32,000 nt of DNA, taken from Promethearchaeota archaeon (GTDB lineage: Archaea > Asgardarchaeota > Odinarchaeia > Odinarchaeales > JBHLKK01). Each line of letters opens with the position of its first letter. Within the stretch, counting starts at the first letter, position 1. Location of the stretch: the NCBI GenBank assembly GCA_048939465.1, contig JBHLPL010000001.1, forward strand, positions 1 to 32,000, given 5' to 3'. The notes below the pieces were generated by a model, which worked only from the letters and a program-made list of their open reading frames with translations, ran no database searches and was not told the DNA's origin. Made by a program: the position numbers and the translations under genes. This document shows positions 467 through 27,303 of the stretch, piece by piece.

Positions 467-600
467 GTAAACTACTCCTAGCTATAGCAAGGAGCTTTCC
501 ATCAGAGGTTGAGTATGGTAAACTGCATCACTCAGAATCCCATCATTTGGACGAAAGAGCCTGTTTACTGAGACTCTAGCTCCAGTAAAGCGGGAAAAGA
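467..600 (-). mobile_element. Element D: IS200/IS605-type right end with upstream structured sequence (5' boundary uncertain)
   Basis: The minus strand ends GAAAGCTCCTTGC-TATA-GCTAGGAGTAGTTTAC, matching the terminal hairpin and end of the copies at 15050, 22502 and 27277. No left end was recognised. Confidence 0.6.
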
Positions 601-14561: not shown

Positions 14562-14942
14562 ATGAAAGTGGCTAATAGCAAGTTTGGCCAGATTGAGGAT
14601 GTTCTACGGGAAATAGAGGTAACAACGAGGCATATTGAGGCCAGCGTAGTTGTGAGCTCTCAAGGACTGCCTATCTGCTCTGCCATGCCGCGTGGCGTAG
14701 ATGATGGTACTGTTGCAGCCATGACGGCCGCAATACTCAGTATGGGCGAGCGTGCGACGGTTGAGCTGGCCAGAGGTAGACTCAACAGGATCTTAGTTGA
14801 AGGAGAGCAAGGATATTTCATTCTTACGGGGGCCGGAAAAAATGCTATTCTAGCCGTATTAACGAAACGTGAAGCAAATCTTGGAATGGTTTTTCTTGTA
14901 ATGCAACGTGCTTCTGACAAAATCAAGGGTTTGCTGGATTAA
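14562..14942 (+). CDS. Roadblock/LC7-domain protein
   Basis: IEASVVVSSQGLPI...VAAMTAAILSMGERATVELARGRLNRILVEGEQGYFILTGAG...LAVLT is typical of the roadblock/MglB family. Confidence 0.94.
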   Translation: MKVANSKFGQIEDVLREIEVTTRHIEASVVVSSQGLPICSAMPRGVDDGTVAAMTAAILSMGERATVELARGRLNRILVEGEQGYFILTGAGKNAILAVLTKREANLGMVFLVMQRASDKIKGLLD

Positions 14943-15049: not shown

Positions 15050-15313
15050 GTGAAATGCCCCCCGCTTTCGCAAGGTGCTTCCCCCCTCTGCCTTATGCAG
15101 CTGAGAGCACTTCGGCTTCCTAGAGGGGAAGTTTCTGTTTTCCAGAGTTGACGGGTACACAGGAAAGCTTTCTCCTTCGGGCTGGTTCACTCCGTGCTGT
15201 GCCACAGACACAAGGCAGCCCTGTCAAGCAGGATATACCCACAAGACCTGCACCCCTAGACCGAGTCTCACACCTACGCCGTTGTCAACCTTCCTCTTAC
15301 GAGTATCTTACCC
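15050..15313 (-). ncRNA. Putative ~265-nt structured RNA (omega/reRNA-like scaffold) inside element A
   Basis: Internal TTTAAAT TATA box at 15336-15342. Helices covary with the copy in element B. The transcription start is inferred. Confidence 0.55.
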
Positions 15314-15396
15314 AAACCTTAATTACCAGAAAGTCATTTAAACGTACCGCGATTCATCTCCACCCTCTCGGATGGACTCTTCCTGTGGAGAAAAGG
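15050..15396 (-). mobile_element. Element A: non-autonomous IS200/IS605-derived (PATE/MITE-like) element, 347 bp, no coding capacity
   Basis: Minus strand: TTTAT target (15397-15401), left-end hairpin CCATCC-GAGA-GGGTGG-AGATGAATCGC, and right-end GAAGCACCTTGC-GAAA-GCGGGGGGCATTTCAC. Collinear with 22502-22852. Confidence 0.82.
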
Positions 15397-15446
15397 ATAA
15401 ATCTTGCTTCAATAAAGCAGTTTCATGGGCTATGAGACGGAGTCGA

Positions 15447-16076
15447 ATGGTAATGTCTTACTTAATTAGTTTTGAAGGCATCGATGGTTCAGGCACAGAA
15501 ACATGGTCTAAATATACACGCAGTCTTTTGCAGAAATCGGGATACGAAGTAAGTCTTTTCAGATATCCTGACTATGACAGTCTATGGGGTAAAATAATTA
15601 GATTATTCCTTGATAAAGAAGTGGACCTCTCAACTGAGGTTCAGTTCCTAACTTTCGCAACCGATATAATCAAAGACGTATCAAGGATTAGAGAAGAACT
15701 CCAAGCAGGCCATTTTGTTGTTACAGATCGATACATAATCTCTACGGTAGCGTACCAATGTGCGAAGGGTTTTCCAATGGAAATCGCACAAAGGTTTGTT
15801 GAGTTATTCGATGTTCCAGAACCTGACCTGACAATTCTTCTTGTAATATCCGGAGAAGAAAGCACAAAAAGGAAGAAGTCTGAGAGAGGGCTGTTAGATC
15901 GACACGAAGAGAACACAGAGTATCTTAATGCAGTAAATCGATATTATCAAAATCTCTATGATCAAAATTACCTTTCGAAGAAATGGGTCATCATTGATTC
16001 ATCGGGTTCAAAGGAAAAAACAAGAAAGGACGTACAACAAACATTAATAAACGCGTTTGACTTACCATTTAAATAA
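15447..16076 (+). CDS. tmk: Thymidylate kinase-family protein with an atypical P-loop
   Basis: LISFEGIDGSGTET, VVTDRYIISTVAYQ and VPEPDLTILL. ATG at 15447 follows GGAG; the longer ORF-track start runs into element A. Confidence 0.88.
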   Translation: MVMSYLISFEGIDGSGTETWSKYTRSLLQKSGYEVSLFRYPDYDSLWGKIIRLFLDKEVDLSTEVQFLTFATDIIKDVSRIREELQAGHFVVTDRYIISTVAYQCAKGFPMEIAQRFVELFDVPEPDLTILLVISGEESTKRKKSERGLLDRHEENTEYLNAVNRYYQNLYDQNYLSKKWVIIDSSGSKEKTRKDVQQTLINAFDLPFK

Positions 16077-16094
16077 GTCGGGGGATCGGAACTG

Positions 16095-16886
16095 ATGGGT
16101 ATTTCAAGTGAAAATGGCTTTTACGTCTCGGAGAAAAGGAAGCTTGATCTCGGCAGCTTGGTTGATCCTATTTGCATCCAAGGGATGCCGGGTATAGCTC
16201 TAGTTGGAAAAGTTGCGGTAGAGCATATCATAGAGGAGCTGAATGCTGTAAAGGTCCTAGAAATATTTTTTTATGATTTGCCCCCTCAGGTATTAATCGT
16301 TGACGGTACAATGAATCTGTCAAAGACTGAACTGTACTTTTGGAAGGATGAGAATCAAAAGCACGACCTGTTCTTACTAACCGGAGATGCGCAACCCACC
16401 TCACACACGGGTGCGAACCTATTATCCGATCTAACCGGAAAGTACTTGGCCAATCATAACATAGGTTTCCTAATGGCACTGGCGGCCTCGGCCGTTCAGA
16501 TTCCCGTTAATGAACCTAACATATATGTATCCGCCTCGTCTTCCGAAGTACTGCATAATCTGAAGAATCTACCTCGGATTCATCCATTCAAGGGCGGTAT
16601 AATTACAGGTATGAATGGAATGCTGCCTGCCTATATGAAGAGGCTGTTCGGAATAGAAAGCTGTGTCCTCCTAGTTGAAGCTTGTCGGTACCTCGAAAGA
16701 GACCTGAACGCATCCAAGTTTCTAGTCGAAACCGTGAATAGTTATTTTGATATTGATATCAGCGTAGCGCATCTTGAGGAAAGAATAAACAAGGAAAAGA
16801 AAGGGCTGAAGCCTGACTATGGGATAGAAAGAATTCCTAGAAAATCCCCAGAGGAAAGGCCTGACTATCCAAGTTATATCGGCTAA
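16095..16886 (+). CDS. PAC2-family protein (proteasome assembly chaperone-like)
   Basis: GMPGIALVGKVAVEHII, LFLLTGDAQP, ITGMNGMLP and CVLLVE. Confidence 0.9.
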   Translation: MGISSENGFYVSEKRKLDLGSLVDPICIQGMPGIALVGKVAVEHIIEELNAVKVLEIFFYDLPPQVLIVDGTMNLSKTELYFWKDENQKHDLFLLTGDAQPTSHTGANLLSDLTGKYLANHNIGFLMALAASAVQIPVNEPNIYVSASSSEVLHNLKNLPRIHPFKGGIITGMNGMLPAYMKRLFGIESCVLLVEACRYLERDLNASKFLVETVNSYFDIDISVAHLEERINKEKKGLKPDYGIERIPRKSPEERPDYPSYIG

Positions 16887-16929
16887 TATTCTTTCAGATC
16901 TCGGTTTTTGGAGTATTTTGACCATAATG

Positions 16930-16957
16930 TTTATAAGTAGGTATTCTACTAAGTAGA
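16930..16957 (+). promoter_or_regulatory. TATA box plus palindromic candidate operator of the padR-hsp20 operon
   Basis: TTTATAA at 16930-16936, followed by TCTACT-A-AGTAGA at 16945-16957. Confidence 0.45.
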
Positions 16958-16995
16958 GTGATAATACGTAGAATGAAATAATATATCGTTGATAT

Positions 16996-17601
16996 GTGAT
17001 GAAAATGTTTTGGCACGGACGTGGACTTGGAAGAGGCATCTGGCATAAGAAAAGAATATCTCCAGTGGAATTTCTGATGCTGGTAATGTTGAAAGAAAAA
17101 CCCAGATACGGCTACGAGATTATTCAAGAACTGGATGATAAGTTCAAAGGTCAATGGACTCCAAAGACAGGAACGGTGTATCCTGCCCTTCAAAGGCTAG
17201 AAAAACGTGATCTGATTAGCGGAGCGCTTGAAGAAAGCGAATCAGGACCGTCTAGGAAGATATATAGTTTAACCTCTGAAGGTGAGGGGATATTGAGCAC
17301 AATTGCAGATAATTTTGACCGAGAGATAAAATTCCTGAACACGTATGTGGGAATAGTCGATCCCTTTCTCTCTTCATGGAGTGCAGACTACGCCATACGC
17401 CGTCTCAAAGGAGCTATTAAAGCAAATACCAATAGGGTGATCAGACTGTCGAAGTCTTTCCTTAAGATACCTTTTGAAGATTTGGAAAAGCACCTTACAG
17501 AGTACCGGAACTTCCTGCAGTCTCAGATTGAAAAAGTAGAAGATGAGCTACAGAAAATCGAGAAAAAAAGACGGAAATACGTAAAAATTGATGTCGAATA
17601 G
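16996..17601 (+). CDS. PadR-family transcriptional regulator with a long helical C-terminal region
   Basis: LVMLKEKPRYGYEIIQEL...WTPKTGTVYPALQRLEKRDLI...RKIYSLTSEGE. Confidence 0.94.
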   Translation: MMKMFWHGRGLGRGIWHKKRISPVEFLMLVMLKEKPRYGYEIIQELDDKFKGQWTPKTGTVYPALQRLEKRDLISGALEESESGPSRKIYSLTSEGEGILSTIADNFDREIKFLNTYVGIVDPFLSSWSADYAIRRLKGAIKANTNRVIRLSKSFLKIPFEDLEKHLTEYRNFLQSQIEKVEDELQKIEKKRRKYVKIDVE

Positions 17602-17609
17602 GAGGTGTT

Positions 17610-17981
17610 ATGATGAATCACGGAATAGGATCGTTCCTACACAAGATGATGAAATCCAGACATCACTGGAAGCGTCTCTTACCTTTTAGGCCGATAGGGT
17701 TGCTCAATGAAGCAGATCAGATAACAGTCCAAATAGATATTCCCGGGTTTAACAAGGAAGATATAGACATTAGAGCTGGGGAAGATGAGCTAGTGATTGA
17801 GGCCGAAGCCAAAATTGAGATAGAAAAACCAATCATGGAGAAGAGTAAGAGAAGGTTCTATGATGTAATTCAGCTTCCAGCTTTCGTCAAAACTGAGGAG
17901 GCGAAAGCCAGGTACGAAAAAGGTGTTTTAACCATAACTCTTCCAAAAAGAGAACCTCAGAAAAAGATAGATGTGGAATAA
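17610..17981 (+). CDS. hsp20: Small heat shock protein (Hsp20 / alpha-crystallin domain)
   Basis: VQIDIPGFNKEDIDI...AKARYEKGVLTITLPK with a C-terminal IXI/V motif (KIDVE). GGAGGTG RBS. Confidence 0.93.
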   Translation: MMNHGIGSFLHKMMKSRHHWKRLLPFRPIGLLNEADQITVQIDIPGFNKEDIDIRAGEDELVIEAEAKIEIEKPIMEKSKRRFYDVIQLPAFVKTEEAKARYEKGVLTITLPKREPQKKIDVE

Positions 17982-17995
17982 TATTTTGACAGTCT

Positions 17996-18763
17996 TCACT
18001 TCTCCCCTTTTTTTGCCTGTTTTATGCCTCGAATTATCTCGTTAAGGGTTCCCCCTTTGTCTTTTAATACAGTGTTCTCTACGAAAGTCCCCTGAACTAT
18101 CATGCTGGCACCGGCCTTGGCAGCGGAAACCGCTTCTGACATTGTATTGATTCCCCCGCCTACGATTATCTGAATATCTATGGTCTTTGAAACGGCTGAA
18201 ATCATATCCGGCGGCACCATAGCCTCAACTCCCGAGCCACCTTCCAAGTATACAAGTTTAAACCCCATGTATTGGGCCGCCAAAGCGTAGCCCGCTGCAA
18301 TAAGTGGTTTATTGCGGGGTATAAGGCGTGCTCCACTAACATAACCCGCAGTACCTCCTGGCTCAACTATAAGATATGCCATCGGTATGGCTTCTATACC
18401 AAGCTTCTTCACTATGGGCGCAGCTAAAGCTTGGGCCCCCACTACCCAATAGGGATGGCTTGCATTAAAGACACTCATGAAGAATACTGCATCTGCATGT
18501 TTACTAATTCCTGTAATATTTCCCGGGAAGAGGATTACTGGAACCTCGGTTTGGTCTTTTATGGCAGCTACTGTCTCATCGACCTCCAGACTCGTTGAAC
18601 CGCCTACCATGATCGCATCGCTTCCGGCTTTAACAGCCAAACGAGCCAGCTGCCCCGCCTGCGCAGGTGTTTGATGGGCAGGATCAGGATCTATCAATGT
18701 GAGGTGGACAACTCCTTCCTCATTGACAATCTTGCTTAAATAGTCCCATACTCTATTACCCAC
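17996..18763 (-). CDS. Geranylgeranylglyceryl phosphate synthase (archaeal lipid backbone)
   Basis: HLTLIDPD, DAIMVGGS, PVILFPG, VYLEGGSG and IIVGGGI. Confidence 0.96.
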   Translation of the reverse strand: MGNRVWDYLSKIVNEEGVVHLTLIDPDPAHQTPAQAGQLARLAVKAGSDAIMVGGSTSLEVDETVAAIKDQTEVPVILFPGNITGISKHADAVFFMSVFNASHPYWVVGAQALAAPIVKKLGIEAIPMAYLIVEPGGTAGYVSGARLIPRNKPLIAAGYALAAQYMGFKLVYLEGGSGVEAMVPPDMISAVSKTIDIQIIVGGGINTMSEAVSAAKAGASMIVQGTFVENTVLKDKGGTLNEIIRGIKQAKKGEK

Positions 18764-18986
18764 ATCTTGTCCCCTCGTTTCTAATGAGAAATCGTCCCCA
18801 CCTTGACTGTTCTATTTCAGAAGACTGATTTTGTTATTCTCCTTTCTGTGCTTTTTGGATTTAACTCTATTGGCTAGAAACCCCCCTCCTATATTATTGA
18901 GACACAAAAAGACTACATAGAAGCAGAACTCCTATGCAAGCAGATTTTGAGTTCACACAATCTATTGCCGGTCTACTGTCACGTTG

Positions 18987-19136
18987 TCATATTGGAAATT
19001 CGTATCCGCACTTTGGACATTTGCAGTATTTGCAACTCCCCATAGCAATATTAGGGCATGCGCCACAGGCTAAAGCCCTTGAATAGGAGATTGAGAACCT
19101 AAAATTGCATTTGGGGCATATCAGAATCCGGACCAT
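18987..19136 (-). CDS. 49-aa cysteine-rich microprotein (four CxxC pairs), missed by the ORF track
   Basis: Hand translation gives MVRILICPKCNFRFSISYSRALACGACPNIAMGSCKYCKCPKCGYEFPI*. A purine-rich GAAGGG precedes the ATG. Confidence 0.8.
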   Translation of the reverse strand: MVRILICPKCNFRFSISYSRALACGACPNIAMGSCKYCKCPKCGYEFPI

Positions 19137-19226
19137 CCCTTCTCCTCACGCTCGGCCTCTAATAAGATGTTGTATGATAAGCTTTTTAATGTTTTTCTCT
19201 CAAATTCCTTTATCTGGGGTAATTCC

Positions 19227-19766
19227 ATGAGTAAGAGAAACAAGAAAGCAACGAAGCAGATTGCTCTGGGCGCGATGTTAATCGCCACAGGAATAGCTTT
19301 GGCTACTCTTATATGGTTTCCCTTCTTAGGGGCGAAAGCTTTTCCGGTACAGCACATGATTAATGCAATCGGAGGTGTCTTCCTAGGCCCCATCTGGGCA
19401 GCGTTCATTGCGACTGCTATAGGATCGATAAGGAATATATTGGGTACGGGAACAATCTATGCCTTTCCAGGTGGTATACCCGGCGGGATGATTGTGGGTC
19501 TATTCTATCTGCTGATTGTTAAAGCAGCAAGAAAGAAACATGGGAACCTGGCAGCACTAACGGAGCCTATCGGGACAGTTTTCATCGGAGCTACTCTATC
19601 GGTTTACGTTTTTGCTCCTTTGTTCGGGGATCTTCAATCAGTTGGGGCTTTAATTCCATTCTGGATCTCTTTCGCGACCAGTAGCATTCCTGGATCTATT
19701 ATAGGATTCATTGTTCTTCAGGTGCTGGAAGTTGGGGGAATCGATGGAGAGTATTTCCGTCAGTGA
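19227..19766 (+). CDS. thiW: ECF transporter S component, ThiW family
   Basis: KAFPVQHMINAIGGVFLGP...IRNILGTGTIYAFPGGIPG...EPIGTVFIGA. ATG at 19227 is the likely start. Confidence 0.92.
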   Translation: MSKRNKKATKQIALGAMLIATGIALATLIWFPFLGAKAFPVQHMINAIGGVFLGPIWAAFIATAIGSIRNILGTGTIYAFPGGIPGGMIVGLFYLLIVKAARKKHGNLAALTEPIGTVFIGATLSVYVFAPLFGDLQSVGALIPFWISFATSSIPGSIIGFIVLQVLEVGGIDGEYFRQ

Positions 19767-20307
19767 GTTCTTGGGCAAGAGTACTCTAATCATTGGAGAT
19801 GTGGGCGTAGGCAAGACTAAGTTGACAGCACTAGTAGTTGAAGAGCTATTAAAGAAAGGGTATGGAAATGATATCACGATAATCGATTTGGCTCCTATGC
19901 CTGTTACTTACCGAGGCATGCAAGTAGGCGGTCGAGTCTCCAATTATGTCGGTATTGATCCAGTGAGATATCTGACTTCTGAATCTATCACAGCACCCAG
20001 ACTGACTGCAAAAAGCAGGGATGAATTGGTTGACATCATAGAGAGAAACAGGCAATTAGCTGAGTCATGCCTTGAGAAATACTTGGTCTCCCCCACAAAG
20101 ATACTAACCATTAATGATTTGACCATATATCTGCACGCCGGTAGACTGGATATTGTTACAGGATGCATTTCTAAATCTGAGACTTTCATCGGAAACGCAT
20201 ACTACGGGGATTCCCTGAAGAATGATCTGGGGACAGGAATCTCCACAAGAGAAAAGCAATCGATAGACAGGTTTTGTAAAATAGTGGATAGAGTAATCAG
20301 CCTTTAA
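19744..20307 (+). CDS. Uncharacterised P-loop NTPase
   Basis: STLIIGDVGVGKTKLT Walker A and ILTINDLTIY Walker B-like. The start overlaps the thiW 3' end. Confidence 0.8.
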   Translation: MESISVSEFLGKSTLIIGDVGVGKTKLTALVVEELLKKGYGNDITIIDLAPMPVTYRGMQVGGRVSNYVGIDPVRYLTSESITAPRLTAKSRDELVDIIERNRQLAESCLEKYLVSPTKILTINDLTIYLHAGRLDIVTGCISKSETFIGNAYYGDSLKNDLGTGISTREKQSIDRFCKIVDRVISL

Positions 20308-20420
20308 CAAAAGAATAGGGAATTTTTCCAACCTAGATTGCTCAATTTGAATGTTTTTCCATCAAGAAATAGAAGTAAATCATATATACTTTCCTTCAAT
20401 AGAAATCACCGGGGTAGCCG

Positions 20421-20996
20421 ATGTCGCACTATTCAGAAGATATAAAAAGAGCCGTCTTTAAGTCCTGTCTAAGCTGCGTTCAGACCACGCTTAAGGATGG
20501 AACGAGGATAAACGTAAGACCCTTGAAACCTAGTGATAAGCGTTATCTTATAGAGATGTACAGCACGATATCACCTTATACGCAAAATCTCCGTTTTGGT
20601 TGCGTTAAATCGATTGATGGTTGGAGGGCAGTAAACATAGGGAGATCTGTTATTTACATTGATGGAACAGACGTGGACTATGATACGAGCATGTCTCTCG
20701 TAGCTGTTAAGGAAATTCATAATGGGATCAAGATAGTAGGAGACGCTCGCTATGTTCTGAATAAAGAAAAGAATGAAGCTGAGTGTACTCTCTTGGTACA
20801 TGACGACTATCATAACTTGGGCTTAGGAACTCAACTTATGGGATGTCTCATAGATGTGGCTAGAAAAAGAAACATAAGCAAAATCTATGCATGCATTGCA
20901 GCTAAAAACAAGAAGATGCTGCATGTAGCTCGAAAAACAGGTTTTGAAGTCATTCACAAAGACTCTGATGAATATATTATGAAGATTGACCTCTAG
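20421..20996 (+). CDS. GNAT acetyltransferase resembling the stand-alone GNAT domain of Pat/PatZ lysine acetyltransferases
   Basis: TLKDGTRINVRPLKPSD...LRF...IVGDARYV...AECTLLVHDDYHNLGLGTQLM...NKKMLHVARKTGF. Confidence 0.88.
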   Translation: MSHYSEDIKRAVFKSCLSCVQTTLKDGTRINVRPLKPSDKRYLIEMYSTISPYTQNLRFGCVKSIDGWRAVNIGRSVIYIDGTDVDYDTSMSLVAVKEIHNGIKIVGDARYVLNKEKNEAECTLLVHDDYHNLGLGTQLMGCLIDVARKRNISKIYACIAAKNKKMLHVARKTGFEVIHKDSDEYIMKIDL

Positions 20997-21009
20997 AGAA
21001 CCTTAGGAT

Positions 21010-22461
21010 TTATGTTATCTGTGTGGTAGGTTTCCCTGAAAATGATCCTACGAGCTGATCGTAGAGCCTTCTTCCGACTCTGATATTAGTACTTACCAGC
21101 TTCATACGATAACCGCTTCTAATTGTTCTAATGAGTTCTCGAGCTGCCCAGCCTGGCCTTTTAATGAACCTCTGATAACCTTCGGCTATTATTTCGGCTA
21201 TTCTTTTTTCGGGGACGCAATTCGGATGCACCTCGGGCACATCCACGGCATCTTCCCAACCAGTCTCTTGGTTGATGTAGCCGGATTTAACCAACTCTTC
21301 GTGGATCTTTGCCCCTGGAATTGCCGACAGGATATTAAACTGAGGAAAATCGAGGTCAAGTTTCATTGCGAAGTTTATCGTATTATAAATCTCCGAGACT
21401 GTTTCCGTTGGCGCACCAACAATGAAGGTTCCAGTTATGATATCTGTACCTGCCTTTCTGGCATTGTTTACGGCAGCTACGGCCTGATTCACCTTCGTCC
21501 CTTTGTTATAGTAATCCAAAACTCTCTGATTGGCACTCTCGATACCAATATATAAGATCTTAAAACCAGCCGAAACCATCGATTGAAACATCTCTCTCGA
21601 GGCGGAATCTACTCTTCCTTCGGCGATCCAATTGAACTCAAGGTTCCTTTTTCTAATGAGATTGCAGATCTTAATTACTCTCTTCTTGTTTATTGTAAAA
21701 TTGTCGTCAATAAAGAGCACATTCTCGTACCCCTCAGAAATAACCTGCTCTATCTCATCGACAACATTCTCCACGCCTCTAGGTCTCCATCTTCTATGTG
21801 CAAATGCTGCGCAACAACAGTAAGTACAGGCAAAGGGACAACCCCTGGATGAGAGAATGGAGGTAAATTTCGGCATCTTAGCGCCTGATATGTAACCATA
21901 GTCATTTCCTTTAACAAATTTCCGGCGCGGAATGGGCAAATCATCTAGATCCAGAATCATCTCTTCTTTCTTTCCATATTTTACTCTCTTATTTTCTCTG
22001 TAAACAAGACCCCCAACACTCTTCAAGTTCCCACCGCTTTCCATTGCTTGAGCCAGGCTGAGCATCGAATACTCCCCCTCACCTTTAATGATGTAATCCA
22101 CTTGCGGATATTTCTGTAGTATCCTTTCAGCATTCATGGTAGCGTAGTAGCCACCAAAAACGATGGGAAGATTTGGATTCCACTTCTTGAGGTAGTGCGC
22201 TTGCTTTGCAGCCCTAATACCTGTAGAGACCAATGTAGAGAATCCTACGATGTCTGGATCTATTCTCTTTATCTTCTTGATAAGAGCTTCATCTGAAATC
22301 TTCTCTCCAGGTTGATCCACTACATTAACGCCTATGCCATTGTTCTCGAGTACAGTTGCCATATACAGGATTCCCATCGGTTGACTTCCGGCTCTTGAGT
22401 CGTAGGCTTTTTCGAACGACAAGAGTAGAGGATTCACAAATGTGACCTTCATTTTGATCAT
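21010..22461 (-). CDS. Cobalamin-binding radical SAM protein (class B methyltransferase-like)
   Basis: N-terminal B12-binding domain (PMGILYMA...DIVGFS...IVFGGYYAT), SRGCPFACTYC as CxxxCxxC, and IGIESANQRVL. Confidence 0.93.
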   Translation of the reverse strand: MIKMKVTFVNPLLLSFEKAYDSRAGSQPMGILYMATVLENNGIGVNVVDQPGEKISDEALIKKIKRIDPDIVGFSTLVSTGIRAAKQAHYLKKWNPNLPIVFGGYYATMNAERILQKYPQVDYIIKGEGEYSMLSLAQAMESGGNLKSVGGLVYRENKRVKYGKKEEMILDLDDLPIPRRKFVKGNDYGYISGAKMPKFTSILSSRGCPFACTYCCCAAFAHRRWRPRGVENVVDEIEQVISEGYENVLFIDDNFTINKKRVIKICNLIRKRNLEFNWIAEGRVDSASREMFQSMVSAGFKILYIGIESANQRVLDYYNKGTKVNQAVAAVNNARKAGTDIITGTFIVGAPTETVSEIYNTINFAMKLDLDFPQFNILSAIPGAKIHEELVKSGYINQETGWEDAVDVPEVHPNCVPEKRIAEIIAEGYQRFIKRPGWAARELIRTIRSGYRMKLVSTNIRVGRRLYDQLVGSFSGKPTTQIT

Positions 22462-22501
22462 CTTGGTGCATTTTACGATAGGAAATAGGCCTGAACGCCT
22501 T

Positions 22502-22769
22502 GTGGACTACTCCTCGCTTTCGCAAGGAGTCTCCTCACTCTCTCTGCATTAAGCGTCTGAGGACACTTTGGCCTCGCAGAGTGAAGGTTTCTGTGCTCCG
22601 AATTCAGGACTGCACAGGAAAGCTTTCGCCTTCGGGCTCGTTTGCTCCATACTACTCCGCAGCCACTCAGGAGCCCTATCAAGCAGGATACACCCACAAA
22701 GCATGCATCCCCCAGACCGGGTTTTGCACTCGTAACGTAGGGCAACCTTCCTCTTGCGAGCATCTTACC
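22502..22769 (-). ncRNA. Putative ~268-nt structured RNA (omega/reRNA-like scaffold) inside element B
   Basis: Internal TTTTAAATA TATA box at 22791-22799, GNRA-capped hairpins, and helices covarying with element A. Confidence 0.55.
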
Positions 22770-22852
22770 AAGACTTAGTTATCGAAAAGCTATTTAAAAG
22801 CAATGCAGTTCATATCCATCCTCTCAGATGGGGTCCTCTTGCCGAAAAAAAA
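22502..22852 (-). mobile_element. Element B: non-autonomous IS200/IS605-derived (PATE/MITE-like) element, 351 bp
   Basis: Minus strand: TTTAT target (22853-22857), left-end GGCAAGAGGACC-CCATCT-GAGA-GGATGG-ATATGAACTGC, and right-end GAGACTCCTTGC-GAAA-GCGAGGAGTAGTCCAC. Collinear with element A. Confidence 0.85.
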
Positions 22853-22925
22853 GATAAAGGGTTGAGCATTTGAAGTCTTCCGATGAAGAATGGTCCGATA
22901 TAATTAAGATAGATAAATCATATTA

Positions 22926-23633
22926 TTGTGTGTGGGAACAGATTTGAAAATAAATAGTGTGTTCGACGTTATTGGACCGGTTATGGTGGGTCCTTCTAGC
23001 TCTCACACGGCCGGTGCTGTTAGAATAGGCTTAGTTGTCCATCAATTGCTGGGGAAAATCCCTAAAGAAGTTACAATACTCCTTCATGGTTCTTTTGCTG
23101 ACACCTATCGAGGACATGGGACTGACCGAGCTATTGTAGCGGGGCTGCTTGGTTTCAACACAGATGACGAGCGAATAACAGATGCTTTGGATATAGCAAA
23201 AGAAAACGACATGAAAGTTGAACTCAAATTAGTAGACCTGGGCGATGAATATCACGCTAATACTGCTAAGATCGTGGCGAAAGGACTGGACATTCCCGAA
23301 ATCGAAGTAATCGGCAGCTCTATTGGCGGTGGGAACATATTAATAGTTGAGATTAACGGGTTTAAAACAGAGTTGACGGGAGATTACGATACGATAATAA
23401 CCTTACACCGAGATAAGTCAGGTGTTATCTCTCAGGTAACGAGCATTTTGAGCAAACATCATGTAAATGTAGCATTTATGCGGGTTTCTCGAAAAGCAAA
23501 AGGCAAAGAAGCTTCTATGGCAATCGAGGTAGATTATCAGGTTCCCTCAGGAGTTCTGGATGAGATTGCCTCTCTCAGAGAAGTTAGACTGGTACGACTA
23601 ATAAAGGCAATTTCGCCAGCTGGGGGGATTTAG
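22926..23633 (+). CDS. sdaAB: L-serine dehydratase, iron-sulfur-dependent, beta subunit with ACT domain
   Basis: SVFDVIGPVMVGPSSSHTAGA, SFADTYRGHGTDRAIVAGLLG, and a C-terminal ACT domain. Exact start uncertain. Confidence 0.95.
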   Translation: MCVGTDLKINSVFDVIGPVMVGPSSSHTAGAVRIGLVVHQLLGKIPKEVTILLHGSFADTYRGHGTDRAIVAGLLGFNTDDERITDALDIAKENDMKVELKLVDLGDEYHANTAKIVAKGLDIPEIEVIGSSIGGGNILIVEINGFKTELTGDYDTIITLHRDKSGVISQVTSILSKHHVNVAFMRVSRKAKGKEASMAIEVDYQVPSGVLDEIASLREVRLVRLIKAISPAGGI

Positions 23634-23669
23634 ATGTCAGGGATGACGAGGCAATCGCCGGACCGAGCA

Positions 23670-23678
23670 TATATAAAA
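23670..23678 (+). promoter_or_regulatory. TATA-like box upstream of sdaAA
   Basis: TATATAAAA about 22-30 nt before ATG 23700, with a GAGGTG RBS in between. Confidence 0.45.
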
Positions 23679-23699
23679 TGAGTAATTGAGGTGGATCTG

Positions 23700-24572
23700 A
23701 TGCCAGAATTCAAAACAATACAGGATTTGATTCAGCTAGCTGAGAACAAGAATACGTCGATGGGACAAATAGTCCTAGAATGGGAAGCTGAATCTGCAGA
23801 AAAACCCGTCGAGGAAATACGGACCAGAATGAGAAACTACTGGCAAGTAATGAAGCAGTCTATTGAACAAGGTCTCACTCAAAAAATAAGGTCTGTAACG
23901 GGTTTGACGGGCGGAGACGCAAAAAGAATGATGGACTCGAAGGCAAGGATTATTTGTGAAAACATGAAAGGGGCCATAGCTAGAGGTTTAGCTGTTGCAG
24001 AAGTCAATGCGGCAATGAAAAAGATCGTAGCTGCTCCTACAGCTGGCTCCAGTGGAATAATCCCGGCAACTCTTTCGGTGACAGCTGAAAAGCTAGGAGT
24101 ATCTGAAAAGCAAGTTATCCAAGCCTTATTCACCGCCTCTGGTGTGGGGGTAGTCATTGCAAATAATGCGACGATTTCTGGAGCTGAGGGAGGATGTCAA
24201 GCCGAATGCGGAGTAGCCTCGGCCATGGCCGCTGCCGCCGTCACAGAATTGGCTGGGGGAACTCCAAAGCAGGCTGGGCATGCAATCGCTATCGCTTTGA
24301 CGAATACGCTGGGTTTGGTTTGCGATCCTGTGGCAGGACTGGTAGAAATCCCGTGCATTATGCGAAATGTCATTGGTGTTGTTAACGCTCTGATTTCCGC
24401 TGAGATGGCGTTGGCAGGAATAAGGAGTGTCATTCCAGTAGACGAGGTCATTCTTGCTCTGGATGATGTAAGCAAACGTTTGCCGGAAGAACTGAAAGAA
24501 ACCGCTTGTGGCGGTCTTGCTATAACCCCCACCGGGCTAAGAATAAAAGAGGAATTTCTGGGGAAAGAATAG
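23700..24572 (+). CDS. sdaAA: L-serine dehydratase, iron-sulfur-dependent, alpha subunit
   Basis: IVAAPTAGSSGIIP, ISGAEGGCQAECG and LGLVCDPVAGLVEIPC contain the three Fe-S cysteines; ETACGGLA follows. Confidence 0.96.
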   Translation: MPEFKTIQDLIQLAENKNTSMGQIVLEWEAESAEKPVEEIRTRMRNYWQVMKQSIEQGLTQKIRSVTGLTGGDAKRMMDSKARIICENMKGAIARGLAVAEVNAAMKKIVAAPTAGSSGIIPATLSVTAEKLGVSEKQVIQALFTASGVGVVIANNATISGAEGGCQAECGVASAMAAAAVTELAGGTPKQAGHAIAIALTNTLGLVCDPVAGLVEIPCIMRNVIGVVNALISAEMALAGIRSVIPVDEVILALDDVSKRLPEELKETACGGLAITPTGLRIKEEFLGKE

Positions 24573-24584
24573 CTGTGTGGTCAT

Positions 24585-25460
24585 TCAAATAACCTTCTCA
24601 AAAACTAAAAGGTTGTACTCATCGGAAGGTTCAAAACCCATTTCTCTCAATTTGCTCGGTATGGGTTCAAAATTGCAAGCAAAAGCATGTATCTTCTCTA
24701 GCTTCCGTTTTAGGGCATAGTTAAGCAGAAACCCCATCATATCGCCAACTGATTCGGGGTCTCCACCAATATAGCATGTTTGTATGGCCTTTATGTTCCA
24801 CGCTTGCTCAATTCTATCGTCGAGAAGAATCACACCTTTAATCTTACCTTCCTTCTCTGAGATTATCACTCTCTTGTTTCTCGCGAACGTCTTTGTATCT
24901 TCTTCTTCCAATGAATACCAAACAAAGAGTATGGTGTAGAGCCCTGAAGACTTGTCGTAGACTGCTGAGTTCTTCAAGAACTCGTTTATTTTTTCGACAT
25001 CCTCCTTTTTACCCCATCGAGCATCCCCAACATCCTCGAAGTAGTATGGTTCGCACTCCAAATGCACGAATTCTGTAATAGGTCTGAATCCCAACTTTCG
25101 GGCAAAACCCTGGGCTATCTTGTTAATAGATATTATGCAGGACCGGCCTATCTTGGCTCCTACTTGTTTGGCGAAAGAAAAACATTCGCGGTTAAGCAAA
25201 GTGGCGATACCTTGTTCCCTGTATTGAGGATCCACCCTTAATCCTTGGAACCAAACTTCGCCGGGCTTAGTAAGCAAAACGTGACAAATCCCGACCGGCC
25301 TTTCGTTTATTAGTCCTACGAATAACCTTCCCCTATTATCCTGAATCCAAAGGTCCCATACTTCGGAAATGTAGTCCCCCCATTCCCATGTGTTCTGACA
25401 GAATTCTAAAACAGTCTCCTTGTCCGAGTTCTTTGCTTTGCGAATCTTGACTTCCCGCAT
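24585..25460 (-). CDS. GNAT acetyltransferase with a second degenerate GNAT-like domain
   Basis: WEWGDYI...EVWFQGLRVDPQYREQGIATLL...ARKLGF. Downstream of the peptidase on the same strand. Confidence 0.87.
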   Translation of the reverse strand: MREVKIRKAKNSDKETVLEFCQNTWEWGDYISEVWDLWIQDNRGRLFVGLINERPVGICHVLLTKPGEVWFQGLRVDPQYREQGIATLLNRECFSFAKQVGAKIGRSCIISINKIAQGFARKLGFRPITEFVHLECEPYYFEDVGDARWGKKEDVEKINEFLKNSAVYDKSSGLYTILFVWYSLEEEDTKTFARNKRVIISEKEGKIKGVILLDDRIEQAWNIKAIQTCYIGGDPESVGDMMGFLLNYALKRKLEKIHAFACNFEPIPSKLREMGFEPSDEYNLLVFEKVI

Positions 25461-25485
25461 TTTGATGCATACCTTATCAGATTTG

Positions 25486-27042
25486 CTAATAACTTAGCTC
25501 TGTGTGTCTTTGGAGATAGGGATGGGGATCCAAGCTAGACCAAGACAAGTCAATATCGCTACGCTGAGACATCAACTCCTCAAGTAATCTCCCTGCTTTC
25601 TTTGTTTTCCACCAATAGTCACCGTAGTCATGCTCTAGCAATTGTTCGAGTTCAGCAACTCTTACTGACGCAATAACATAGCTTGGACTATAAAGGTTAT
25701 AACTCGGCATAACATGATGTAATAGCCAATAGTCACCTGGCAGTCTGTGGAAGAACCTCGCAGTTAGTTCTTCATAACGCTCGGACGCTCCTTCTATGCT
25801 AAGATTATTCCGCCAATATTCAAGTTTCAAAATGCTGTTTGCTGCATAGAAGACCAGAAACCAAAGATTCATGAAATGCCTTCTATTAATAATATCATTG
25901 GCTACTTCTTCATTGAATTTGAATACTTCGTTTAGAACGAGAGGATTTTCGACGATGTGTTCAAAGAGAATAGAAAATGTCTCATCAACTCCGATTGGCG
26001 TGAAATACCGGTTCCATATTGGTTTATCCGAACGTGCAGATACACCATGTATTGCATGTCCCATTTCGTGAAAAACGCTGCTTGTATCTTCAAAAGGATC
26101 ACTTTGTCTAAAAAGAATACGAACATCATTTGGAATCTGAACGTAGAAGGTTACTGGACTTGGCGTTTTTCCTGGACGATCTGCATCGTCTACATTGACC
26201 CGAGATAGATCAAGACCCATTTCTTCAAAAACATCTTTAACAATTTCTATGGGATTTTTCAATTTGGCAAAACGTCTTTTGAGGGGATGATAGACCCTAC
26301 TCCTAAAAACATACATATCATCATAATAATCAAAGGGCTTTCCAAAGAGCTCCTCAGAGTATCTCTCAGCACCTTTCATGAATGGTGATTTAGCTCGATC
26401 ACCTAACATTTCAAGTAGTCTGTGAAGATCCTCGTATCGAACATCTTCCCACTCCAGATATTTCTCAAGCGCGGTGGTATTGTACTTTGCATACGTTTGT
26501 CTGGAGATTTCAAAGAATTCCTCTATTAATGATTTGATTAAGGAAGCTTTCTGGATAAATTCATCAAAAACCGCCTTTCTTTTACTGGGCTCGGCTTCAG
26601 AATTGAATTGACGCCAATTTCCCCAGTTGACATTTTCTCCTCTGAATCTTTCCTTGCTGGAGATAACTCTATTGCGTTCTTCGTGTAATTTGTGTGTAAC
26701 AGGAGTTTGCTCAGAGACAACAATGGACTCAACAAGTCCCTGCTTCAGCCTAAGATTTTCCGGTTGATGCCGTTGGAGGAACTCCCTTGATATTCGAATC
26801 ATATCCTTGGCTGCTTTTTCCATCCTGTCCTTATTTACGTCCAAACCAGCGTATTGATTGTACAACTCTTCGGCCTCTATGCTGTACAGCATTTCCCATT
26901 CTTTGTAGAATTTTGAAGGTTCCACGTTGATCCCCTCAATTGCCCTTCTGCTTTTTGAGAGATAATCCTTACGATTATTTATGTTTTTCTTCCACAAGGA
27001 GACTCCATCCGCGGGGGTGGACGTGAATCGAGTTGTGTTCAA
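25486..27042 (-). CDS. Zinc metallopeptidase, M3/oligopeptidase-like (gluzincin)
   Basis: VFHEMGHAIH HExxH motif with a downstream DETFSILFE third-ligand Glu. TTG start after GAGGGG. Confidence 0.85.
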   Translation of the reverse strand: MNTTRFTSTPADGVSLWKKNINNRKDYLSKSRRAIEGINVEPSKFYKEWEMLYSIEAEELYNQYAGLDVNKDRMEKAAKDMIRISREFLQRHQPENLRLKQGLVESIVVSEQTPVTHKLHEERNRVISSKERFRGENVNWGNWRQFNSEAEPSKRKAVFDEFIQKASLIKSLIEEFFEISRQTYAKYNTTALEKYLEWEDVRYEDLHRLLEMLGDRAKSPFMKGAERYSEELFGKPFDYYDDMYVFRSRVYHPLKRRFAKLKNPIEIVKDVFEEMGLDLSRVNVDDADRPGKTPSPVTFYVQIPNDVRILFRQSDPFEDTSSVFHEMGHAIHGVSARSDKPIWNRYFTPIGVDETFSILFEHIVENPLVLNEVFKFNEEVANDIINRRHFMNLWFLVFYAANSILKLEYWRNNLSIEGASERYEELTARFFHRLPGDYWLLHHVMPSYNLYSPSYVIASVRVAELEQLLEHDYGDYWWKTKKAGRLLEELMSQRSDIDLSWSSLDPHPYLQRHTELSY

Positions 27043-27062
27043 AACCCCTCTTGAGTGTTTAT

Positions 27063-27277
27063 GGCAAGGGTCTGTGACCCTGAAAGGAGAGTTGACATAG
27101 GTAACAGGCTCTTAGGCTATATGCTTAAAGAAGGGCTATCCCGCAGTCTGTGGCTGCTTGTGACGGGAATTTAACCGGCCCCAAACCTCCCCCAATGTTC
27201 GTTACTCTGAAAAGAGACTTGTTAGCGTTTCAAAGTCCGAGGGAGAAAACCCCTTGCGAAAGCTGGAGGTAGTTCAC
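27063..27277 (+). mobile_element. Element C: shorter, divergent relative of A/B (215 bp)
   Basis: Directly preceded by TTTAT (27058-27062) and ends GAAAACCCCTTGC-GAAA-GCTGGAGGTAGTTCAC. Internal patches resemble A (GGCTATATGCTT..AGGGCT..GTCTGTGGC) and D (AACAGGCTCTT). Confidence 0.65.
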
Positions 27278-27303
27278 TCAGAGAAGAAGGATTTGTAAAA
27301 CTT

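Follow-up and report, generated by a model that had tools for sequence, protein, structure and literature searches.

Gene-less elements with IS200/IS605-type ends in an Odinarchaeales genome

We analyzed a stretch of 32,000 nucleotides (nt) from a Promethearchaeota archaeon of the order Odinarchaeales (GenBank assembly GCA_048939465.1, contig JBHLPL010000001.1, positions 1 to 32,000; hereafter the window), which is contig C138 of a 1.96-Mb assembly of 152 contigs (genome G000; GC 43%, 91% complete). Four short elements, A to D, lie between the protein-coding genes of the window. They are very probably protein-less internal-deletion derivatives of insertion sequences of the IS200/IS605 family, of the type known as palindrome-associated transposable elements (PATEs). 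Their ends are the same as those of elements that carry tnpA and tnpB, or tnpB only, elsewhere in the genome; they are inserted 3' of TTTAT without target duplication; and the loci differ in occupancy between our genome and two genomes of the same genus (G001 and G002), in which the orthologous flanks are present.

Elements and ends in the window

An original prediction, made from the sequence of the window, had placed element termini at 467(-), 15050(-), 22502(-) and 27277(+), and all four termini were found exactly there. It described four elements without open reading frames (ORFs). This holds for B, C and D, which are complete, whereas A is only the 5'-truncated right-end half of an element of a different subfamily. 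The parts are as follows.

467 to ~626, minus strand: element A, right-end half, 5'-truncated, about 160 nt, sister subfamily (from blastn and the right-end profile)
467-472, minus strand: terminal GTTTAC of A
474-495, minus strand: right-end hairpin of A
563-568, minus strand: internal complementary GTAAAC of A
15050-15396, minus strand: element B, complete, 347 nt, ORF-less, B/C class (boundaries from the empty sites in G001 and G002)
15050-15055, minus strand: terminal TTTCAC of B
15058-15077, minus strand: right-end hairpin of B
15185-15190, minus strand: internal GTGAAC of B
15336-15342, minus strand: TATA-like TTTAAAT of B
15358-15377, minus strand: left-end hairpin of B (from alignment with 12 paralogues)
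15397-15401, minus strand: TTTAT adjoining the left end of B, the target and presumed target-adjacent motif (TAM); empty sites read ...GATTTAT|TTG..., and the filled site has B exactly between
22502-22853, minus strand: element C, complete, 352 nt, ORF-less, B/C class (from alignment and the empty site in G002)
22510-22529, minus strand: right-end hairpin of C, followed by the terminus GTCCAC
22640-22645, minus strand: internal hexamer GCAAAC of C (3 of 6 positions pair)
22792-22798, minus strand: TATA-like box of C
22814-22833, minus strand: left-end hairpin of C
22854-22858, minus strand: TTTAT target adjoining the left end of C
26978-26982, plus strand: TTTAT adjoining the left end of D
26983-27277, plus strand: element D, complete, 295 nt, ORF-less, shorter D class
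27003-27022, plus strand: left-end hairpin of D
27038-27044, plus strand: degenerate TATA box TTCAAAA of D
27170-27175, plus strand: internal hexamer TTTAAC of D (4 of 6 positions pair)
27250-27269, plus strand: right-end hairpin of D
27272-27277, plus strand: terminal GTTCAC of D

All four elements share a right-end module that consists of GGAAG, an 8-bp stem closed by a GNRA-type four-base loop, and TAGTTCAC, with terminus variants in B (TTTCAC), C (GTCCAC) and A (GTTTAC). B and C are 73% identical along about 350 nt, and their similarity ends at TTTAT on one side and at ...CAC on the other. The original prediction had noted TTTAT at the other end of three of the four elements, which are B, C and D; the similarity limit at TTTAT was seen for B against C. 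D has about 70 nt at its 5' end and about 45 nt at its 3' end in common with B and C. The D and B/C bodies are also related, in that both contain a stretch around ...GGGCTGTC...CTGTGGC...GGA(A/G)GTGAACCAGCCC, a core near the pseudoknot strand described below. A shares only the 3' hairpin with the other three. It lacks the left end together with the first ~120 nt, has no flanking TTTAT, and matches the right-end profile at E=0.008 (nhmmer). Its homologues of about 160 nt on contigs C144, C10 and C139 (76-81% identical by blastn) are part of ~300-nt elements that have their own left-end hairpin, and the intact members of this subfamily, about 300 nt long, end in GTTTAC.

The ends are asymmetric and lack terminal inverted repeats; similar subterminal hairpins lie on the same strand at both ends. 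The left-end hairpin, CTCCATCC-GAGA-GGGTGGAG, starts 20 nt from the boundary, and the right-end hairpin, CTCCTTGC-GAAA-GCTGGGAG, finishes 8 nt from it. This is the HUH-type, IS200/IS605 layout that had been proposed. In IS608, the cleavage sites and the guide tetranucleotides, which lie directly 5' of each hairpin foot, form the pairs TTAC/AAAG and TCAA/GAAT. By eye, the corresponding tetranucleotides here are TTAT and AAGA at the left end, TCAC and GAAG at the right end of B/C, and TTAC and AAAG at the right end of the A type. The TT-AA and TC-GA pattern is that of IS608, but several copies have GAAA or GAGA, and the foot of the hairpin is ambiguous by one base.

As predicted, each element is intergenic and lies between ordinary housekeeping genes. 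The surrounding genes encode triosephosphate isomerase, a Roadblock/LC7 protein, thymidylate kinase, a B12-binding radical SAM enzyme, a serine dehydratase beta/ACT protein, an M3 peptidase and a nucleotidyl transferase. The Roadblock/LC7-domain gene (PF03259, E=6.5e-17) occupies 14562-14942 on the plus strand and adjoins element B. In G002, an A-type right-end fragment (L160, contig C120:1351-1477) is likewise found immediately downstream of the gene for triosephosphate isomerase, in the orientation opposite to A; it could be an independent insertion or the product of a local inversion. The right end of D with its flank (27270-27281, GTTCACTCAG) contains GTTCACTCA. The same nonamer has been reported as a conserved motif that bounds a hypervariable region downstream of aCas1-associated tnpB in Asgard archaea (Altae-Tran et al., PMC10691335). 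The match may be a coincidence, or it may reflect related right ends used by aCas1-associated tnpB loci.

Empty sites, family members and resident enzymes

The boundaries of the elements can be read from orthologous sites that lack them. In both G001 and G002, GCAAGATTTAT is followed directly by the homologue of the 3' flank of B; in the window the 347-nt element lies exactly between the two, with no duplication and no ambiguity at either side. C is absent from G002, where TTTAT is followed by the homologue of its 3' flank at a base-exact junction. D is absent at the orthologous site in both genomes, where the junction is too diverged for a base-exact boundary. There is also a reciprocal case: a B/C-type copy on contig C22 of G002 ends in ...GCAGTTCAC followed by its flank, and the homologue of this flank in our genome (contig C46) stands directly after AATTTAT, with no element. 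A second G002 copy (contig C18) has no counterpart at the orthologous locus of our genome. The three base-exact comparisons of filled and empty sites (B, C and the reciprocal case) agree in TTTAT| at the left, ...CAC| at the right and no target duplication. Comparing strains for empty TTTAT sites, which had been named as a check on the original prediction, thus gave base-exact results for B and C and the reciprocal case in addition, and insertion 3' of a short AT-rich motif without target duplication is borne out. We also considered TTATC as the target and rejected it, because the cut, as read from the empty sites, falls after TTTAT, and C is the first base of the element.

Excision by TnpA is seamless, so that absence at a locus means that the element either never inserted there or was excised. 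In either case, occupancy differs at all 5 loci compared, and the family has therefore moved after the congener lineages split.

The elements in the window belong to a genome-wide and diverged family, as had been suspected. When the 1.96-Mb genome was searched with nhmmer profiles of both ends, 58 left ends were found at E<1e-3 and, at E<0.05, 41 right ends, numbers which show that the repeats are not due to chance; the copies compared are at most ~82% identical. By eye, the flanks of the 58 left ends are mostly TTTAT, with TTCAT, TTTAC and similar variants. A blastn search with B returned 13 full-length B/C-type copies (68-78% identical) and many partial matches. After pairing of the ends, the ORF-less elements fall into size classes of ~228 nt (7 copies), ~300 nt (D type, ~7 copies) and ~350 nt (B/C type, 13 copies). 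About 12 further left-end matches are single-hairpin micro-elements of ~48 nt, composed of the left-end leader, one hairpin and TAGTTCAC. Examples lie at C73:16327, C23:2050, C68:5972, C5:3121 and C77:45641, and resemble the 52-bp terminal-only PATEs of Haloquadratum. At C139:2539-4057 (minus strand), a left end and an A-type right end are 1.5 kb apart with no intact TnpB detected between them; this locus could be the decayed remains of a tnpB element, or an element with a different cargo.

The same ends enclose genes for transposition enzymes. The original prediction stated that no transposase or TnpB is nearby, which is true of the window, where we found neither TnpA nor TnpB, but not of the genome. 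A genome-wide search with Pfam models detects one Y1 transposase gene (PF01797, 126.7 bits) and TnpB matches above cut-off for PF07282 (4) and PF01385 (3), and tblastn resolves these enzymes into one tnpA and three intact tnpB genes. Such a search for enzymes carrying the same ends had been proposed, and it locates them in three elements. The first, on contig C105, has the family left end, tnpA (135 amino acids; L039:1150-1554), tnpB (427 amino acids) and a right end ...GGGTGGAGTAGTTCAC, which terminates as ...GGAGTAGTTCAC and ends in TAGTTCAC. Its own left end has TAGTTTAC directly after the hairpin. The second, on contig C2, is 1313 nt long between its paired ends and is tnpB-only: the left end lies 83 nt upstream of an intact tnpB (383 amino acids) and the right end, ...GGGCGGGGCAGTTCAC, 37 nt past the tnpB stop codon, with the terminus ...GCAGTTCAC. 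The third, also tnpB-only, is split, with one part at an end of contig C70 and the other at an end of C55. The left and right hairpins of the C2 and C105 elements are nearly identical.

Both proteins are recognizable relatives of characterized enzymes. The C2 TnpB matches the structures of ISDra2 TnpB over its full length (E=1e-60), and the TnpA matches ISDra2 TnpA at E=8e-23. All three TnpBs retain D/E/D-like catalytic motifs (by eye), and their nearest relatives are found in metagenome-assembled genomes labelled Candidatus Hodarchaeota (83%), Sifarchaeum, Borrarchaeum and Promethearchaeota. The profile matches of the Hodarchaeota locus (L060) are the same as those of locus L053 in G001, and G001 therefore appears to be that Hodarchaeota genome. 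Together with the Roadblock/LC7 gene beside B, these relatives are in line with an Asgard source.

The tnpB genes also indicate how ORF-less copies arose. In the 228-nt class and in derivatives of the C70 type, tblastn detects C-terminal relics of TnpB, corresponding to the last 18-40 residues of the resident proteins and still encoded. These relics mark the 228-nt and C70-type elements as internal-deletion derivatives, in which both ends and the terminal portion of tnpB have been retained. A weak relic of the TnpB zinc ribbon (E=0.003) survives in one D-type copy, and no coding relic was found in the B/C copies.

A putative guide-RNA scaffold in the element body

What is the body of the B/C elements, if it does not encode a protein? 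In 11 copies it has stop codons in all three sense frames and no conserved frame, and no B/C copy is matched by the Pfam TnpB models. Its resemblance to a TnpB omega-RNA scaffold, which the original prediction does not mention, is suggested by two features. The first is TTTAAAT, a TATA-like sequence some 60 nt inside the element, present in 9 of 11 aligned B/C copies (one more has TTTAGAT); in the C2 element, TTTAAAT is located where the promoter of tnpB is expected. The second is a potential pseudoknot, in which the terminal hexamer of the element would pair with a complementary one located 102-144 nt upstream. These hexamers covary between subfamilies: GTTCAC and GTGAAC in the B/C and D types, GTTTAC and GTAAAC in the A type, GTCTAC and GTAGGC in the C139 element, and GTTCGC and GCGAAC in the C106 element. 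Over 21 elements, pairs form at 110 of the 126 positions, and compensatory double changes occur at three positions of the helix. In the TnpB-omegaRNA complex of ISDra2, the pseudoknot joins positions -6 to -2, just 5' of the guide, to positions -102 to -106 (PMC10097598); the geometry of the hexamer pairing here matches it. The putative scaffold occupies the 3' end of the element and finishes at the right boundary (by construction), which leaves the flank in the guide position. Among the elements of the window, B keeps 5 of the 6 pseudoknot pairs and the TATA box.

These features, together with the ends, suggest a mechanism. A Y1 (HUH) TnpA supplied in trans would bind the two similar top-strand hairpins, excise the element as single-stranded DNA at TTTAT| and ...TTCAC|, and reinsert it 3' of another TTTAT ("peel and paste"). 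The body would be the remnant of the 3' end of tnpB together with the right end, i.e., the omega-RNA scaffold, transcribed from the TATA-like box of the left end and reading into the 3' flank, which would be the guide. TnpB in trans, with this RNA, might then cleave the vacated site of TTTAT plus flank, and recombination would restore the element. The original prediction suggested that the family is maintained in trans. Autonomous relatives with the same ends do exist, but the HUH motif of the sole TnpA detected is damaged, for which reason trans maintenance at the present day is doubtful.

The covariation of the body as a whole is less clear than that of the terminal hexamers. RNAalifold, applied to the 11 copies, gives a weak covariation term (-2.05 kcal/mol) and misses the left-end hairpin. 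In a hand-adjusted structure of 91 pairs, double changes occur in 16 pairs against 12 expected (51 of 500 shuffles reach this). A search of the window against Rfam at gathering thresholds gave no match, a relaxed search of five element loci (E<=1) gave two chance matches only, and a tRNA scan of the window found none.

Live cassettes, fossils and known systems

The strongest competing explanation accepts the same kind of element but regards the copies as inert fossils, neither mobilized nor expressed, with a body conserved by descent from a master copy and not by RNA function. We consider this a serious contender, though we lean against it. Several results favor it and weigh against live, RNA-producing cassettes. 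The sole TnpA of the 91%-complete assembly reads DKDYFHMIF, where its orthologues in G315 and G316 (another Asgard family, 86% identical) have DKDHFHMIF and ISDra2 has DHVHLLL; the first HUH histidine is therefore replaced by tyrosine, through a one-base change, while the catalytic YIENQ (Tyr, Gln) is intact. In IS608 and ISDra2, both HUH histidines bind the metal ion and are required for cleavage. With the C105 TnpA as query, we detected no TnpA in G001 or G002 (78% and 82% complete). No pair of compared copies is more than ~82% identical, that is, all are at least 18% diverged from one another, and so there is no sign of recent transposition. The pseudoknot has decayed in C (3 of 6 pairs) and D (4 of 6), and the TATA box of D has decayed as well.

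The statistics of the scaffold are modest, too. When the termini were shuffled among elements, 289 of 10,000 permutations reached the observed pairing, a fraction that is not a true probability because the rows are related; the scoring of one row was out of register, and the test is conservative for that reason. Of the cells in the 91-pair structure, 87.1% form pairs, barely above the 86.1% of column shuffles, of which 3 of 500 attain the observed value. Minority G:T outnumber A:C combinations 101:59 by cells and 52:41 by pairs (the latter not significant), and the pair-breaking cells comprise 59 A:C and 61 other non-pairs. Outside the first ~90 nt and the last ~37 nt, no similarity between the B/C body and the three resident tnpB elements was detected, and a profile of the body compared with these and with ~90 related loci matches the ends alone. 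By blastn among 400 genomes of the phylum, the body is restricted to its own genus, with a few right-end-only matches elsewhere. A cognate tnpB for the B/C/D scaffold was not found in the assembly.

On the other side, all 5 loci compared differ in congener occupancy, which implies movement after the lineages split, and the compensatory changes in the pseudoknot helix fall at three different positions. Moreover, an intact tnpA or tnpB could lie in the 9% of the genome that is missing from the assembly. Taken together, the family in this genome looks old and possibly no longer mobile, and the sequence of its motif suggests that the resident transposase may now be impaired. It is tempting to hypothesize that the B/C/D scaffold represents an orphan omega-RNA lineage that has outlived its own tnpB. 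Selection would then still maintain it as a stand-alone guide-RNA cassette with its own promoter, and the TnpB that serves it would be either a heterologous resident protein or one encoded in the unassembled 9%. We consider this unlikely. If it were true, ORF-less cassettes and not nuclease genes would be the main propagating unit of a transposon family in an Asgard lineage.

Two further alternatives fare worse. Domesticated guide-RNA genes, which would direct TnpB or a nuclease-dead relative to other targets as in TldR systems, would account for a promoter-like box and a pseudoknot scaffold in each cassette, and for ORF-less copies that far outnumber the tnpB genes. However, for none of the 41 flanking guides of sixteen nt does the genome contain a second match at <=1 mismatch, and the two-mismatch matches lack TTTAT; the absence of second targets beyond chance counts against a regulatory role. 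The three TnpBs keep their catalytic motifs, and the positions of the elements are not conserved between congeners, so we judge domestication very improbable. Least probable of all, to the point of being almost negligible, are readings that have nothing to do with DNA transposition, namely paralogous genes for structured non-coding RNAs, or self-splicing or retro-elements that lack ORFs. Such readings would fit the many GNRA-type loops and the upstream TATA-like box but not the chance-only Rfam matches (even at E<=1), the identity of the ends with those of tnpA/tnpB elements, the base-exact insertions after TTTAT that are polymorphic between congeners, or the lack of group II intron boundary and domain V features recognizable by eye. 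A version of this idea, a paralogous structured RNA gene with TTTAT as its TATA box, was dropped after the same ends were found around tnpA and tnpB and the empty sites became apparent.

The reading as internal-deletion derivatives of IS200/IS605 elements accounts for conserved "intergenic" blocks that are overlooked by protein-based annotation and by ORF-based surveys of insertion sequences, in a lineage relevant to the origin of eukaryotes. It also yields a defined target and TAM (TTTAT), exact ends, and three TnpBs with candidate scaffolds as possible compact RNA-guided nucleases. With some 50 or more ORF-less ends against three tnpB genes and one apparently impaired tnpA, the genome may offer a natural case of guide-RNA cassettes persisting after the decay of their enzymes. 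IS200/IS605 elements occur in more than 65% of Asgardarchaeota genomes according to an ORF-based survey of 2026, which mentions non-autonomous derivatives in passing and gives no catalogue of gene-less ones (PMC13343696).

That the elements are PATE-like, a kind already known from haloarchaea and bacteria, is well supported, and they call for no new mechanism; the apparently orphan B/C/D scaffold and the probably impaired transposase add modest interest. PATEs were described in Haloquadratum walsbyi and related haloarchaea (Dyall-Smith et al. 2011, PMC3119063). As the original prediction anticipated, the elements fit that definition in having no protein, near-terminal palindromes and an origin by core deletion. 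In detail, both groups are too short to encode a protein, have IS605-like near-terminal palindromes and no terminal inverted repeats, cause no target duplication, and adjoin a targeting sequence of 4-5 nt. Both form heterogeneous, diverged subfamilies derived from tnpB elements by deletion of the core, include terminal-only forms of ~50 bp (here ~12 of ~48 nt), and show strain-specific insertions though intact tnpA is scarce. They differ in host (Asgard, not Halobacteria), in end sequences and in target, which is TTTAT here, and the copies examined here contain no inserted SMR-type elements. The haloarchaeal description is older than the omega-RNA and describes no scaffold.

A closer functional parallel comes from Geobacillus stearothermophilus, where many PATE-like elements of the ISGst family are reported to encode omega-RNAs that depend on TnpB in trans (Meers et al. 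2023, bioRxiv 10.1101/2023.03.14.532601). These are likewise gene-less with IS200/IS605 ends, and a single tnpA acts in trans on numerous non-autonomous copies, as it would here. The Geobacillus system is bacterial and was tested experimentally, whereas ours is known from sequence; moreover, the TnpA here looks impaired and one scaffold lineage is without a resident tnpB.

The nearest solved homologues of both proteins are those of ISDra2 from Deinococcus radiodurans (TnpA, 2XM3; TnpB-omegaRNA, 8EXA and 8H1J). Its left target is TTGAT. ISDra2 and the elements described here thus share a T-rich pentanucleotide target at the left (TTTAT in our genome, so that the TAM differs), and in its omega-RNA, as in the putative scaffold, the bases just 5' of the guide pair with a segment ~100 nt upstream. 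ISDra2 is autonomous, while the elements here are ORF-less, and at ~265 nt the B/C scaffold would be about twice as long as the 116 nt of ISDra2.

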